From the sequence record MN709127.1: a stretch of DNA of 64,000 bases; one strand, written 5' to 3'. Position numbers and translations under genes: made by a program. Below, in pieces: positions 34,079-63,007 of this stretch (the stretch's first letter is position 1; the number at the start of each line of letters is the position of its first letter). Source of the stretch: Escherichia phage Ec_Makalu_002. The notes beneath the pieces are model-generated. The model made no database searches and was not told where the DNA came from. It saw only the letters and a program-made list of their open reading frames with translations.

Positions 34079-34082
34079 TTTG

Positions 34083-34090
34083 TATAAATA
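34083..34090 (+). promoter_or_regulatory. T4-type late promoter TATAAATA upstream of gene 24
   Basis: Exact TATAAATA about 38 nt upstream of ATG 34128. Confidence 0.6.
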
Positions 34091-34127
34091 TGATATATCC
34101 ATTAAGGCAAATACAGGATTCATAAAC

Positions 34128-35369
34128 ATGACTCATATTTTTACTGAACTGTTGCGGGAATCTACTTCCTCAGTAGCTAACCAGACAGCGCGACCGCAAC
34201 TATTATCATTAACTCGCGCGGTAAACAACCTGATTTTCTCTGATCTGGTAGCAATCCAGCCAACGGATCAACCAGTATCTGCATTGTACGGCCTACGTTA
34301 TCTTAATCGTGATGGTCAGATGACTTTCCGAACTGCTGCAACCTACGGTGGTGCGGTTGGTGATCGCACAGAGATTGAAGAGTTTTCAAAAGAAAAATCT
34401 TATGACGAAGGCGCACTATTCAAATCAGGCGATGTTGTATACGAAGTTGTGACCGCTGGTACAGTCGGTGAAGATGCCGCAACTCCAGAAGCTGCGATCT
34501 TTAAAGGCGTAATGACAAACAAAATTCGTTTCTATAGCGATTGTGCATCGGTAGAATACTTTGAAGATAAAAACACCGAAATTGCGTCTACCTCTATGCA
34601 GTTTGACAAGTGGCAAGTTAATGTAGGTTCTCGTAAACTGAAAACCTCGTTCACCACTGAATTAATGCAGGATCTTGAGGCAAGCCAAATCAACTCTGAA
34701 AACTCTGTAATTGATCTTCTGGCTACTGTTGCTTCCGAAGAGATCAACAAAGATATTATTCAGAAGTTGATCACTGTATCATCTCGCTATAAAATTAAAG
34801 GGATCACCCCTGATGGCGTACTTTCTCTCGTTAGCGTTCAGGATGCACCAACACAAGCGCGTGAACTTTACCGCTATGCTTGCGAGATGAGCAATCAAAT
34901 GTTGCGGACTTCCTCCTTTGCTGGTACATACGTTTTGGCGTCTTCTCGCGTGGTTGGCCTCCTGCAATCTTCCGGTTGGATGGAAGAAACCGACAATGCT
35001 CTAAGCGAAGGTCGTCTACGTTGCGGTCTGGAAGTTTACGCAGACACGACAACACCTTTCGATTATATGCTCGTTGGTTGCAAGCACATGATCGGTGATA
35101 TGGAGAGTGTCGGTTCTCTGTTCTACTCCCCATATACAGAAGCTGACGGCGCTGGCGCGTATAAGAGCGTAATTGACCCTAATAGCTTCCAGCATCATGT
35201 AGCTATTATGAATCGTTATTCACTCTCTGTCAACCCATACACATCAAAAGTTGATCAGGAAGAACACCAGGTCATCAAGGGTGACGATTGGGGTAAAATG
35301 GCTGGACGTTCAGAAATGTCCTACATTTTAGGAATCGAACTGCCACCACTTGAGATTGACAACGCTTAA
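34128..35369 (+). CDS. 24: Capsid vertex protein gp24
   Basis: ORF track starts at TTG 34080 (overlapping the late promoter); ATG 34128 gives MTHIFTELLRES..., aligning with T4 gp24 N-terminus as recalled. Confidence 0.85.
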   Translation: MTHIFTELLRESTSSVANQTARPQLLSLTRAVNNLIFSDLVAIQPTDQPVSALYGLRYLNRDGQMTFRTAATYGGAVGDRTEIEEFSKEKSYDEGALFKSGDVVYEVVTAGTVGEDAATPEAAIFKGVMTNKIRFYSDCASVEYFEDKNTEIASTSMQFDKWQVNVGSRKLKTSFTTELMQDLEASQINSENSVIDLLATVASEEINKDIIQKLITVSSRYKIKGITPDGVLSLVSVQDAPTQARELYRYACEMSNQMLRTSSFAGTYVLASSRVVGLLQSSGWMEETDNALSEGRLRCGLEVYADTTTPFDYMLVGCKHMIGDMESVGSLFYSPYTEADGAGAYKSVIDPNSFQHHVAIMNRYSLSVNPYTSKVDQEEHQVIKGDDWGKMAGRSEMSYILGIELPPLEIDNA

Positions 35370-35957
35370 CTAAATATCTAACCAAGACAAGTCAGATCCG
35401 CCCAAGATTTTTTCGACGGCGGATCTATTTTCTTGATGATATAAGTTAAAACATGGTATCCCATGTCTACGGGCAACATAAACAGCAATTCGAGTTCCTC
35501 CCGAAACGATTCCATTAACTTCTTTCGCCCAGAATATCACACAATCTACAGGATCATCAAGTGTCTCACCTAAGACTTGAGCAACATTTCTAGAAAACAG
35601 ATTTTGCATGTATAACGGTATAGAACGAGGATTATCATAAACGTGTTCTAATTCATCCATCGCCAGATTTTTTTGTTCTAAGGTTTGCCATGCAATCACA
35701 TCATGACCGTTATGCTTGTGATCATAAAACTTCCAATTTGGAATGAAAATTTTTCTATAATCTGGATCGTAATACTTCATGAAAGCATTGTCCATACCGT
35801 AAGCCCCTCCAGAATGCGCTACAACGCGATTTTCTGACAATACCCTCCCAATGGTACTAGCCATTATCAAAATGTCGCTAGGCGCTTTTCTAGAGCCTAT
35901 TAAAGCACATCTACGAAGTGGTTTTACTCCAAATAGATCTTGTAACTGGTCAAACAT
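35370..35957 (-). CDS. SLOG/DprA-like Rossmann-fold protein
   Basis: Motifs ALIGSRKAPSD and VVAHSGGAYGMD resemble the DprA/Smf-LOG nucleotide-binding core; ATG with GGAGG site. Confidence 0.5.
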   Translation of the reverse strand: MFDQLQDLFGVKPLRRCALIGSRKAPSDILIMASTIGRVLSENRVVAHSGGAYGMDNAFMKYYDPDYRKIFIPNWKFYDHKHNGHDVIAWQTLEQKNLAMDELEHVYDNPRSIPLYMQNLFSRNVAQVLGETLDDPVDCVIFWAKEVNGIVSGGTRIAVYVARRHGIPCFNLYHQENRSAVEKILGGSDLSWLDI

Positions 35958-36110
35958 AATATTTCCTCCATAGAAAGCAATATCATACTACAAGTTAATA
36001 ACAAATACAAGTATCCGCGTAGCGGAAGCGAGCACAGCGAGCAATAAAACACTTCCAGTAATTGATTAATAAATGTTCGAAACAAATTTTTATTATTCTA
36101 TAAGATAAGT

Positions 36111-36135
36111 CTTCGTTTTGATCATAATTTAATCA
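36111..36135. repeat. Direct repeat copy 1 (CTTCGTTTTGATCATAATTTAATCA)
   Basis: Identical 25-mer repeated 149 bp downstream in a region without ORFs. Confidence 0.5.
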
Positions 36136-36259
36136 TACATGTAAAAACGACACAAAAGGATATCGCTTCGCGAACTCCTACGGAGTATAACATTTGTGTT
36201 ACATTATGTGGTGATTAATAATTAATCAAAGATACATTTTCTATGTTCTAAAGATCTTT

Positions 36260-36284
36260 CTTCGTTTTGATCATAATTTAATCA
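36260..36284. repeat. Direct repeat copy 2
   Basis: Identical to 36111-36135. Confidence 0.5.
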
Positions 36285-36336
36285 AACAGTATTAATATTG
36301 TCCATATGTAAACTAAAATTATGTCAGTAATAGATA

Positions 36337-36362
36337 CAAAAAAGCCGCCCCGAAGGACGGCT
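36337..36362 (-). terminator. Minus-strand terminator after 36371..36808 gene
   Basis: Hairpin AGCCGTCCTTCGGGGCGGCT followed by T-run on minus strand. Confidence 0.5.
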
Positions 36363-36370
36363 AATGTTAA

Positions 36371-36808
36371 TTATTTGTTGATAACGATCTGATTTCGGCG
36401 AATGGTAACATTACTCTTAGAGATGATCAGATCATCCGGCACTACGTTAGTTTTGTATGGTTGGAAGCGAACAAGCATCTGATTGCGTTTAGACCCTTCC
36501 TTAATCTTGATTTCCATCTGGATATTGTTGCCTACGTGAGCAACCGCAATTTCACCTTTATTCTCATAGACCCACTTGCTGGTAACGTCTCCCGCAAAAG
36601 CCTTAATAACTTGCAATGCTTCGTCGTATGCGGTAGAGCTGTGAACTTTCAGAAGGCCAGCCGTAGCAAGACGGGAGCAGGTGATCGCCGGAGATTGCCA
36701 AACATCAACATTAATTTGCTCAATCAGAGTAACACCGCCCTGATCAACTGCTTTGAATGCTTCGAACATTGCCTTTTTCATTGCTACGTGGTTTTTACGG
36801 AATTTCAT
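36371..36808 (-). CDS. Hypothetical protein
   Basis: 145 aa ORF with ATG start; followed by terminator. Confidence 0.5.
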   Translation of the reverse strand: MKFRKNHVAMKKAMFEAFKAVDQGGVTLIEQINVDVWQSPAITCSRLATAGLLKVHSSTAYDEALQVIKAFAGDVTSKWVYENKGEIAVAHVGNNIQMEIKIKEGSKRNQMLVRFQPYKTNVVPDDLIISKSNVTIRRNQIVINK

Positions 36809-36854: not shown

Positions 36855-37130
36855 TCAGGACATTGCCCGTTTGAATGCGTCCATTATAACAGTGTTATTT
36901 GGCTTGTCAACACGTTTTTGAACTTTATTTTTAAATTTTTTGTTTATGTGGTGTTTACGATAAACAACCTTTTCACGGCTGGCGTAAGCCTCGCGTGCAT
37001 CTTTTACCATCAACCATGCCTTAGCCGCATCTTGTCCGCTGATCCCGCCAATCTTCTTAGCAATATCAACAAAATTAAGACCGTGATCTTCGCGTAGCAT
37101 GTAAACCATTAACGCTGTTTTCTTGTCCAT
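36855..37130 (-). CDS. Hypothetical protein (possible helix-turn-helix)
   Basis: 91 aa ORF; start overlaps stop of upstream ORF. Confidence 0.45.
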   Translation of the reverse strand: MDKKTALMVYMLREDHGLNFVDIAKKIGGISGQDAAKAWLMVKDAREAYASREKVVYRKHHINKKFKNKVQKRVDKPNNTVIMDAFKRAMS

Positions 37131-60898: not shown

Positions 60899-62393
60899 CG
60901 AATACCTCTTTTACTGTATTTGCAGTGGTCTTGTCGTAGCGAATACGTTTGATGATTGGGAGAAATAAAGAGAACTCCGGTTCATCTTCTTTACGTGATT
61001 TGCTGCGGATATATCCGTTGCATGTCATCTCAATGACTTTTCCAATCAGGTTATGACGGTCAGCCCATAACATTTCTCGGTCAAGTTCATTTCGACGATC
61101 GAACGGAATTACACGTTCAATACCATCATCACCTTTTTCGGTTGTGGTGTCTGTCAATCCCGATCCGGTGTTAGTCATCATTCGTCCGCACGCACTACGG
61201 ACAGTAAAACCGCCTACCTTGTTAGGTTCTTTACTGTGCGGATATACATCAACAATTTCCGCGTCGAAGTCAATCACTTCTTTAAATTTAACCTGGTCTT
61301 TACTGCGACGATCTTCAAATACACCATGTAAATTTTTAAGGATAATACCTTCTAATCCCATGTTGACATAACGATGATATACTTCGCGAGCTTCATCGAT
61401 ATTGTTAACTACAGTATTTTCGATTATCTGAACACGAGGATCGTTAAGTTCTTCAACAATCTGTTTTAGTTCTTCGAATCGATCTTTATATTGCTTCGTT
61501 GCTTTCTCGTTTCCGTAATACACATCACGGTCGATAACATCCCAGACAGTGTAAACAATACATTGGGCTTCTTCTTTTGGAATAGTTCCTTTCAGTGATT
61601 TGTTGAGGATACCATTTCCGGTCTGACGGTCTGCAACAACGGATTCTTTCACTGCTTCCGCTACTGGCGTTAATGGCATTTCCTCTTCTTCAAATATCCA
61701 TGATAGAGTACCATCATAAACGCTCTCAACGAAGTTCTGCGCTGGTGTTTGAGAAAGGGTAGGCATATATACCAACTCACCATCTAAAACAATTCCACGG
61801 CCTCGTAGACGCTCTAAAACAGCAAACAAATCATCCAGCCCCTGATAGGTATTACCTGAACGGGTATAGATTGCTAATGTTTCTCCGTCAATATCAGCCA
61901 TACCACGAGCGCCATCGCTTTTAAGTTGTGCATACGCCGGATATTTGATATTGGCAATAGTCTTATCAGAACATGACGATGCAAGGTGGCACGGCTGCTG
62001 AGGAATCAGCTTCTTCCATACCTTGTTTGCGGTGGTAGCGGAACAACCGCATTCCAGATCACGATTCAGGACCATCATTGCAACTTTAGCATCATCTTCT
62101 GACAAGCAAGTCAGAGTATCGGTAACTAGCTGTAATGCAGCATTACCAGTTACTTGACGCGTGGCAAGTTTATTTTTAAAGACCTGTAATGCACCGGATA
62201 AAGACAATACAGACGAATAGCGAGACGGTTTATCGTATTTCTTTACGCCAAACGTAACCTGCTTGCAATATGCCAGATAAAAGCATTCTTTCAGCGTTTC
62301 ATTGCTTGCAGATTCTTTCAGGATCTTTTCTTTCAGCGATGTTTTGTCAGTAGCTGCAAGCTGATTAATGATATTAAGAATTGACATTTTCAC
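60891..62393 (-). CDS. 30: ATP-dependent DNA ligase gp30
   Basis: 500 aa; adenylation motif I YAQLKSDGAR (KxDG); size close to T4 gp30. Confidence 0.85.
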   Translation of the reverse strand: MKMSILNIINQLAATDKTSLKEKILKESASNETLKECFYLAYCKQVTFGVKKYDKPSRYSSVLSLSGALQVFKNKLATRQVTGNAALQLVTDTLTCLSEDDAKVAMMVLNRDLECGCSATTANKVWKKLIPQQPCHLASSCSDKTIANIKYPAYAQLKSDGARGMADIDGETLAIYTRSGNTYQGLDDLFAVLERLRGRGIVLDGELVYMPTLSQTPAQNFVESVYDGTLSWIFEEEEMPLTPVAEAVKESVVADRQTGNGILNKSLKGTIPKEEAQCIVYTVWDVIDRDVYYGNEKATKQYKDRFEELKQIVEELNDPRVQIIENTVVNNIDEAREVYHRYVNMGLEGIILKNLHGVFEDRRSKDQVKFKEVIDFDAEIVDVYPHSKEPNKVGGFTVRSACGRMMTNTGSGLTDTTTEKGDDGIERVIPFDRRNELDREMLWADRHNLIGKVIEMTCNGYIRSKSRKEDEPEFSLFLPIIKRIRYDKTTANTVKEVFDV

Positions 62394-62853
62394 CTCGTTT
62401 TGTTAAACGTTCACGAATATCGTTTAGGATACTACAAAATTCCGATTCGGTCAATATGGTCTTTAACGGATCAGTTCCACCTATGCTATGACGCAATTTC
62501 TTATTTCCGGTAGCGAGCAATGCTTTACAAAAATCTGGGTTATTTCGTGCCATCGTAACAAATGCCAGATGTACCAGTCTGTAATAATGCTCACTCATTC
62601 GATGAATCGGGCGACCCTGAAAATATAGCATGTGATTCTCTATCTTTTCAGTCCTTCCGGTTCTTTTTGCTTTGCAGCCGTGCATCAAAAAGATTTCTCT
62701 TTGTCTCTGAGGGTTCTTAAATCTTAGCCCCTGTAAAAATCCTTCTGTGCTGTTAATATCGCAACCAAATAGACGGAATGGCCTTTTATTGAAATTACTC
62801 AACTCGCCAGATGGATAAGGTCCACCCGCATAGATATCAATTTCAGAAGTCAT
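62374..62853 (-). CDS. NADAR (YbiA-like, DUF1768) domain protein
   Basis: GELSNF...STEGFLQGLRF and ALLATGNKKLRH parallel E. coli YbiA FSNF...TSEHYFQAQKF and ALLLAT..KLVEH as recalled. Confidence 0.6.
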   Translation of the reverse strand: MTSEIDIYAGGPYPSGELSNFNKRPFRLFGCDINSTEGFLQGLRFKNPQRQREIFLMHGCKAKRTGRTEKIENHMLYFQGRPIHRMSEHYYRLVHLAFVTMARNNPDFCKALLATGNKKLRHSIGGTDPLKTILTESEFCSILNDIRERLTKRGENVNS

Positions 62854-63007
62854 TGAAACTAATCTCGCTAATCAGAGAGAACGGATCATAATCGTCATGA
62901 GGAATATCGATAGTAATCGAGTGAGGATTTACCCATACACCAAACTGGTCTTCTTCGGTGAATACTTCGGTATGGATTTCGTGGATGTTTACATTCATAG
63001 TTTTCAT
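62843..63007 (-). CDS. Small hypothetical protein (54 aa)
   Basis: ATG-initiated ORF overlapping the NADAR gene start; weak ribosome site. Confidence 0.3.
   Translation of the reverse strand: MKTMNVNIHEIHTEVFTEEDQFGVWVNPHSITIDIPHDDYDPFSLISEISFNDF

Follow-up and report, generated by a model that had tools for sequence, protein, structure and literature searches.

A stand-alone DprA-clade SLOG protein encoded beside gene 24 of a Krischvirus genome and its possible part in counter-defence

The 64,000-nucleotide stretch of Escherichia phage Ec_Makalu_002 DNA analysed here (sequence record MN709127.1; hereafter the window) carries, as can be stated with high confidence, a real gene for a stand-alone SLOG domain of the DprA clade, which retains an intact nucleotide pocket and has no LOG catalytic residue. 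The function that we favour for its product, at a probability of roughly 35%, is that of a non-catalytic binder of ssDNA or of ADP-ribosylated DNA, serving counter-defence. Both the protein and its family, phrog_768, have already been annotated and their genomic context has been published, and a literature search returned no experimental work on phrog_768. The family is among the most widespread of the experimentally uncharacterized accessory families of phages, being present in more than 1300 sequenced phages and also in conjugative plasmids, and its carriers include therapeutic phages of Klebsiella, Pseudomonas, Acinetobacter and E. coli. The features of the locus are as follows.

35370..35957, minus strand: coding sequence of the DprA-like protein, 195 aa, ATG to TAG, a single-domain DprA-clade SLOG (phrog_768), from the ORF list and a profile match
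34080..35369, plus strand: ORF of gene 24, for the capsid vertex protein, which converges on the DprA-like gene
35965..35969, minus strand: Shine-Dalgarno sequence GGAGG, read from the sequence, 7 nt 5' of the ATG at 35957-35955
35982..36010, minus strand: promoter-like element TTGTAT-17 nt-TATGAT with a GC-rich block before it, recognized from the sequence and from its conservation in a divergent relative (locus L087)
about 36335..36362, minus strand: predicted strong intrinsic terminator, AGCCGTCC-TTCG-GGGCGGCT and a T-run, which ends the upstream hoc-side operon

A preliminary description of the window had placed a minus-strand ORF of 195 aa at 35370-35957, with its stop codon abutting that of gene 24, and examination of the ORFs bore this out: the TAG occupies positions 35372-35370 and the gene 24 stop ends at 35369, leaving no spacer between them, the GGAGG ribosome-binding site is in place, and the two peptides quoted in that description, ALIGSRKAPSD and VVAHSGGAYGMD, correspond to residues 18-28 and 45-56. 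Its statement that T4 encodes rnlB and small ORFs at the same site was also accurate, the T4 order being 24> <rnlB <24.2 <24.3 <hoc. A 4.5-kb segment surrounding the DprA-like gene matched 58 Krischvirus records at 90-99% identity, and by this sequence similarity the window is assigned to a T4-like phage of the genus Krischvirus (RB49-type). The counterpart in Krischvirus RB49 is 100% identical at the amino acid level, and those in other Krischvirus genomes are 93-99% identical. Comparison with the 87%-identical copy in L087 reveals purifying selection (dN/dS of 0.11 at a dS of 0.76). Identity among RB49 and other Krischvirus genomes, the wide occurrence of homologues and the low dN/dS together argue against a chance ORF.

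Two other reading frames at this locus deserve comment. The gene 24 ORF, as listed, opens with TTG at 34080; since a late-promoter box TATAAATA is situated at 34083-34090, translation probably begins instead with the ATG at 34128, at residue 17 of the ORF as listed. A 53-aa ORF with a TTG start (35924-36085, minus strand) overlaps the beginning of the DprA-like gene and was rejected as spurious, as a 140-nt insertion disrupts it in L087; it is carried as a CDS annotation in Shigella phage SFHK24, which is probably an annotation artefact.

In PHROGs the protein gave a full-length match to phrog_768 ("DprA-like DNA recombination-mediator protein") with an E-value of 1.2e-60 and 205 bits, residues 15-187 being aligned to profile positions 4-181 of 191. 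The sole Pfam match was to DprA (PF02481), with 22.3 bits, under the cut-off of 29.6, and over residues 15-60 only; NCBIfam TIGR00732 scored 14.4 bits, below its cut-off of 191. The preliminary description had proposed a resemblance to the DprA/Smf and LOG core. The SLOG/DprA-like fold is upheld by the phrog_768 match and by the presence of the pocket motifs; profile searches with DprA, LOG and YpsA gave the sub-threshold DprA match, a lower score for YpsA, and, for Pfam LOG (PF03641), no match even at an E-value of 10 or less. The DprA-like assignment stands, while a LOG-type hydrolase is not supported, the PGGxGTxxE motif being absent.

The predicted structure exhibits a three-layer α/β Rossmann-like fold matching that of the solved SLOG members, with DprA structures as its closest matches. 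In a structure search of BFVD, true relatives scored TM 0.6-0.79, and SLOG proteins of the YspA/DUF2493 type formed a second tier at about 0.45. Compared with DprA/Smf (PF02481; structures from H. pylori, S. pneumoniae and R. palustris), the phage protein comprises one domain of 195 aa, with no SAM or C-terminal winged-helix domain detected in it; it scores under the Pfam and TIGRFAM cut-offs, its sequence alignment to DprA covers the N-terminal half only, and it possesses a helical insert particular to the family, about 40 residues long (74-115, of low pLDDT), and the invariant residues Q127 and N171. Besides, it comes from a lytic phage and not from a competence regulon. As judged from its sequence, it is best regarded as a divergent single-domain sister of the DprA domain and as neither a DprA orthologue, because the SAM and C-terminal domains are absent and the scores lie under the curated cut-offs, nor a LOG-type enzyme. 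A tblastn search found homologues in 1354 records of phages whose hosts belong to many genera, and a profile search of 1.84 billion representatives retrieved 4319 clusters (at 50% identity) with E ≤ 0.001, 2731 of them with E ≤ 1e-10; the best 150 of the 4319 are mostly stand-alone proteins of about 180 aa. No family member was found in the first 50 kb of phage 9g.

The pocket of the protein is made up of the following elements.

Residues of the 195-aa protein, pocket motifs: G21-S22-R23; S49-G50-G51-A52-x-G54-x-D56; P73; L120-x-x-R123-N124-x-x-Q127; G153-G154-T155

Conservation was read from an alignment of 35 diverse family members, in which G21-S22-R23, P26, S49-G50-A52-G54-D56, P73, R123-N124, Q127, G153-G154-T155, A158, A162 and N171 are invariant or nearly so; R123 is invariant, N124 is conserved in at least 90%, and G51 is mostly Gly yet remains under the 90% cut-off. 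Q127 and N171 are invariant residues specific to this family, and the glycine-rich nucleotide-binding loops of the SLOG superfamily are present. The structure of Helicobacter pylori DprA with ssDNA, reported by Wang et al. 2014, defined two signatures of the base-accepting pocket, G-S/T/A-R and F/L/Y-x-x-R-N/D, and the same authors gave P-G-G-x-G-T-x-x-E as the signature of LOG (PMC3950713). The first of the pocket signatures is found in the phage protein as G21-S22-R23, which the profile alignment places on G50-T51-R52 of HpDprA, so that R23 falls on R52. The second is found as L120-F-S-R123-N124, inside a predicted helix (115-129); we infer its structural equivalence to F140-N144 of HpDprA from the order of the motifs and not from a residue-level superposition. 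The region of the LOG loop, on the other hand, reads S-G-G-T-R-I-A-V-Y (GGTRIA), with the near-invariant Ala158 at the position of the catalytic Glu. With the motif PGGxGTxxE missing, a LOG-type hydrolase is not supported, and the protein differs in the same respect from the phosphoribohydrolases LOG and PpnN. Because the DprA pocket is kept and the LOG catalytic Glu is absent, a binder is a better description than a LOG-type hydrolase. The pocket motifs cannot separate a ligand in ssDNA from a soluble one, since other SLOG families bind mononucleotides with the same residues. The RB49 protein has a pI of 6.4 and is not basic.

The neighbourhood of the family was surveyed by clustering 2094 ORFs with BLAST, drawn from 100 loci and the window segment, and in this survey no conserved partner proved universal across lineages; the only recurrence was that of rnlB, within T4-like phages. 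Related loci gathered with two sub-alignments of family members were also searched for Macro, NADAR and DUF4326 domains, using home-made HMMs on the six-frame translations of 83 bacterial or plasmid loci and 96 viral loci. The six-frame search replaced ORF calling in the bacterial loci, where the anchor gene was recovered in 39 of 83, probably on account of spurious ORFs in GC-rich DNA. A Macro, NADAR or DUF4326 domain lies at most 6 kb away in 22 of the 83 bacterial or plasmid loci and in 14 of the 96 viral ones, a linkage of 15-27%; 45 of the 46 hits share the strand of the SLOG gene, 11 either form a fusion with that gene or lie immediately beside it, and in one locus (L060) the order is Macro, NADAR, DUF4326::SLOG. 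This is a recurrent association, counted over the loci as they were gathered, and not a measured enrichment. The best 150 representatives of the 4319 clusters include five fusions to NADAR, one to DUF4326 and one to RecJ, and other loci supply further DUF4326 and Macro fusions and a polyvalent-type protein of 1581 aa. Plasmid copies of the gene are found among genes for SSB, RdgC, SRAP, ImmA/IrrE and SocA. In their survey of viral SLOG domains, Iyer et al. 2022 noted fusions to Macro, NADAR and DUF4326 (PMC9503650); the phage protein is a member of this assemblage (PHROG 768), and the stand-alone habit and the fusions of its family confirm that survey. The copy in the window has neither a fusion nor a close linkage of this kind, and no Macro or DUF4326 domain was detected in the 64 kb. 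The only NADAR in the window is a homologue of gp30.3/AdfN at 62377-62871 on the minus strand (Pfam Phage_30_3 of the NADAR superfamily, E 6e-39), 27 kb off; gp30.3/AdfN is the DNA de-ADP-ribosylase through which T-even phages withstand DarTG1.

Among the fusion proteins, two giants of about 1480 aa (P0017 and P0019) combine the DprA-like SLOG with further SLOG domains (YAcAr and LDcluster4) and with a NADAR at the C terminus, and the 1581-aa multi-domain protein (L075:5266-10011) also carries a DprA-like SLOG domain; all three have the appearance of polyvalent proteins, a type that certain phages and conjugative elements transfer together with their DNA. In a 452-aa fusion (L076:5968-7326), the segment that joins the SLOG domain to the DUF4326 domain (FVFGSNLAGRHGKGAA...) looks similar, on inspection by eye, to a separate protein of 132 aa encoded by a neighbouring (-1/+1) ORF in one of the viral loci. 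The latter matches Pfam DUF7831 (E 1e-27), which may belong, as a member not yet described, to the ADP-ribose-linked gene set.

We propose that the ligand would be a nucleotide flipped out of ssDNA, as in Helicobacter pylori DprA, and possibly an ADP-ribosylated one. The protein, apparently expressed from its own sigma-70-type promoter, would coat or mark the ssDNA generated during replication and recombination of the phage, and the ssDNA marked in this manner would be protected or passed on to repair enzymes. The best candidate partners are the de-ADP-ribosylating enzymes found fused to relatives, namely NADAR (the AdfN/gp30.3 homologue 27 kb away, a candidate for a partner in trans), Macro and DUF4326; these would act against DarT-type toxins of the host, which attach ADP-ribose to ssDNA. 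This proposal draws support from the near-invariance, among the 35 members, of both ssDNA motifs of Wang et al. 2014, from the fusions with NADAR, DUF4326, RecJ and Macro, whose substrates are ssDNA or ADP-ribosylated DNA, from the same-strand neighbourhood of Macro, NADAR and DUF4326, and from the surroundings of the plasmid copies. NADAR strips ADP-ribose from guanine in DNA, and T4 gp30.3 (AdfN) defeats DarTG1 (PMC11543638, PMC11825919). Binding to both ssDNA and RecA is known for ShosA, which is likewise DprA-like (PMC12961424).

A broader proposition, which we consider doubtful, is that the stand-alone DprA-like SLOGs of phages and plasmids represent a novel kind of counter-defence protein, which reads ADP-ribosylated or otherwise damaged bases in ssDNA by means of the DprA base-flipping pocket. 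Such proteins would cover the DNA and so protect it, bring hydrolases of the NADAR or Macro type to it, or remove adducts that are beyond the reach of those hydrolases. That NADAR and Macro free DNA of ADP-ribose and overcome DarTG defences is a recent finding; if the proposition were true, it would extend the resistance of phages to DNA-modifying toxins of the DarT type. If the DprA-like module were the part that targets DNA or reads adducts, this would account for a frequently seen combination of genes and provide one more predictor of phage host range. RB49 offers a convenient model, with a gene that is apparently monocistronic, non-essential in relatives such as T4, and located apart from AdfN.

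The main rival to a binder of ssDNA or ADP-ribosylated DNA, in our judgement somewhat improbable, is a sponge or degrader of a soluble signal or toxin derived from NAD+ or ADP-ribose (cADPR isomers, ADPR-1''-P or others). Iyer, Burroughs, Anantharaman and Aravind (2022) proposed that viral SLOGs, which are experimentally uncharacterized, sense or cleave soluble ADP-ribose derivatives (PMC9503650). Hydrolysis by the phage protein would, however, need another mechanism, as a near-invariant Ala replaces the LOG Glu in GGTRIA. The same authors assigned viral SLOGs mainly to a YpsA-like clade, whereas here DprA is closer than YpsA, the LOG catalytic motif is missing, and the closest structures and the sole Pfam match all point to DprA, a DNA binder. 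The premise that the ligands are soluble only is weakened by the finding that NADAR and Macro act on DNA adducts, and the fusion to RecJ, together with the helicase, HNH and exonuclease fusions described by Iyer et al. 2022, directs attention to nucleic acids. The SLOG sensor ThsA of type I Thoeris also differs from the phage protein, which lacks a fused effector and whose gene belongs to the phage and not to the host. It is less probable, and on the whole unlikely, that the protein is a classical recombination mediator, which would bind ssDNA and load UvsX or RecA, aiding recombination-dependent replication or double-strand-break repair. DprA is the best match to its fold and both ssDNA motifs are kept; phage DprA/Smf has been suggested as an extra ssDNA-binding protein by Iyer et al. 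2021 (PMC7824862); one plasmid copy adjoins rdgC and another lies 5.6 kb from ssb; and in phage DruSM1, deletion of a DNA ligase gene or of a different SLOG gene sensitizes the phage to nuclease-armed Avs, an indication that repair may serve as counter-defence. Nevertheless, the SAM and C-terminal domains of DprA are absent, with no indication that the interfaces for dimerization and RecA are conserved, T4-type phages already use UvsY for that job, and T4 itself lacks the gene, which is hence dispensable for recombination of the T4 type. The links to Macro, NADAR and DUF4326 would be left unexplained as well.

Very improbable, in our view, is an orphan antitoxin mimic directed against ShosTA or PsyrTA/RqlHI, whose antitoxins are DprA-like, by analogy with AdfN, which mimics the DarG1 antitoxin. 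PADLOC did give weak N-terminal matches to PsyrA and ShosA, but they span residues 15-61 only, a motif common to all DprA-like proteins, and ShosA scores below plain DprA. The phage protein lacks both the SAM domain and helix α14, which ShosA needs for stability and dimerization, and shares with these antitoxins only the generic N-terminal motif. It also differs from them in having no adjacent toxin gene: its neighbours are gene 24 and small phage ORFs, with no PRTase or RecQ-like toxin gene beside it. Moreover, ShosTA has been reported to be active on T7 and lambda and not on T-even phages. The least probable of the explanations considered is an accessory factor of RNA ligase 2 in the repair of RNA (tRNA), which would bind the RNA substrate or handle NAD+/ADPr by-products. 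In most T4-like relatives the DprA-like gene does directly follow rnlB, which encodes RNA ligase 2, with gaps of -4 to +19 nt, and the pair, usually located beside gene 24, has been kept together in Slopekvirus in spite of its move to another site. The link is nevertheless limited to Straboviridae, other lineages having no adjacent Rnl2 save for two weak distant matches, and the adjacency appears, on comparison of the loci, to be largely inherited synteny. In addition, RB49 has the DprA-like gene with neither rnlB nor a remnant of it in the 64-kb window, and T4 has rnlB without the DprA-like gene; because each of them keeps one gene alone, the two are separable.

As to the arrangement of the pair, rnlB is located upstream of the DprA-like gene in L002, L003, L088, L092, L098 and L099, and its stop codon often overlaps the start codon of that gene. 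The two are separated by a gene for an HNH endonuclease in certain Slopekvirus copies (L003, L089), and in Moonvirus CF1 rnlB is broken into two ORFs.

The sole phage SLOG for which we found a published knockout phenotype is ORF83 of DruSM1, annotated as "Smf/DprA", whose deletion in a knockout library sensitizes the phage to AVAST type III. Like the protein studied here, ORF83 (of the CAjan gp82 type) is a phage SLOG of small size that stands alone and has R-N and G-G-x-G-T in its pocket. Its type was read from CAjan gp82, in which the cited residues R89, N90, T112 and D114 match exactly; CAjan gp82, of about 130 aa, belongs to Pfam YAcAr (PF10686, E 2e-18). The window protein has no match to PF10686, hhalign of its family profile against CAjan gp82 returned a probability of 1.8%, and the YspA/DUF2493 tier of the BFVD search, at a TM of about 0.45 against 0.6-0.79 for the true relatives, sets the ORF83 type apart. 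Since ORF83 thus belongs to a different SLOG family, transfer of its anti-AVAST III phenotype to the phrog_768 protein is ruled out.

The DprA-like gene is probably monocistronic and early, with a predicted sigma-70-type transcript of its own. The TTGTAT-17 nt-TATGAT element is kept in L087 despite differing flanks, although L087 adds 140 nt before the start codon, and the terminator at 36335..36362 separates the hoc-side operon from the DprA-like gene. No late-promoter box of the T4 type (TATAAATA) was found near the gene on the minus strand. The gap of 413 nt upstream of the gene (35958-36370, minus strand), unusually long for a T4-like genome, contains no credible ORF. A remnant of rnlB was sought there by tblastn, which gave none anywhere in the 64-kb window, and a structured RNA was likewise rejected (Rfam matches far under threshold and a fold z-score of -1.08).

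The same gap contains an exact direct repeat of 26 nt, TGATTAAATTATGATCAAAACGAAGA (minus strand, 36284-36259 and 36135-36110, 149 nt apart), which is absent from the rest of the window. Its spacing is the same in three close Krischvirus loci, and one degenerate copy is present in L087. Either copy would begin a tiny ORF (MIKTK...), and the conserved block that separates them includes two palindromes, TTCGCGAA and GATATC. Farther upstream on the minus strand, the 145-aa ORF at 36371-36808 has no family match, and the 91-aa ORF at 36855-37130 encodes a DUF2774 protein (E 7e-29). Promoters that match the sigma-70 consensus perfectly, TTGACA-16 nt-TATAAT, occur twice on this strand, one at 37481-37454, after the hoc terminator, and the other at 36910-36883, inside the DUF2774 ORF and ahead of the 145-aa ORF.
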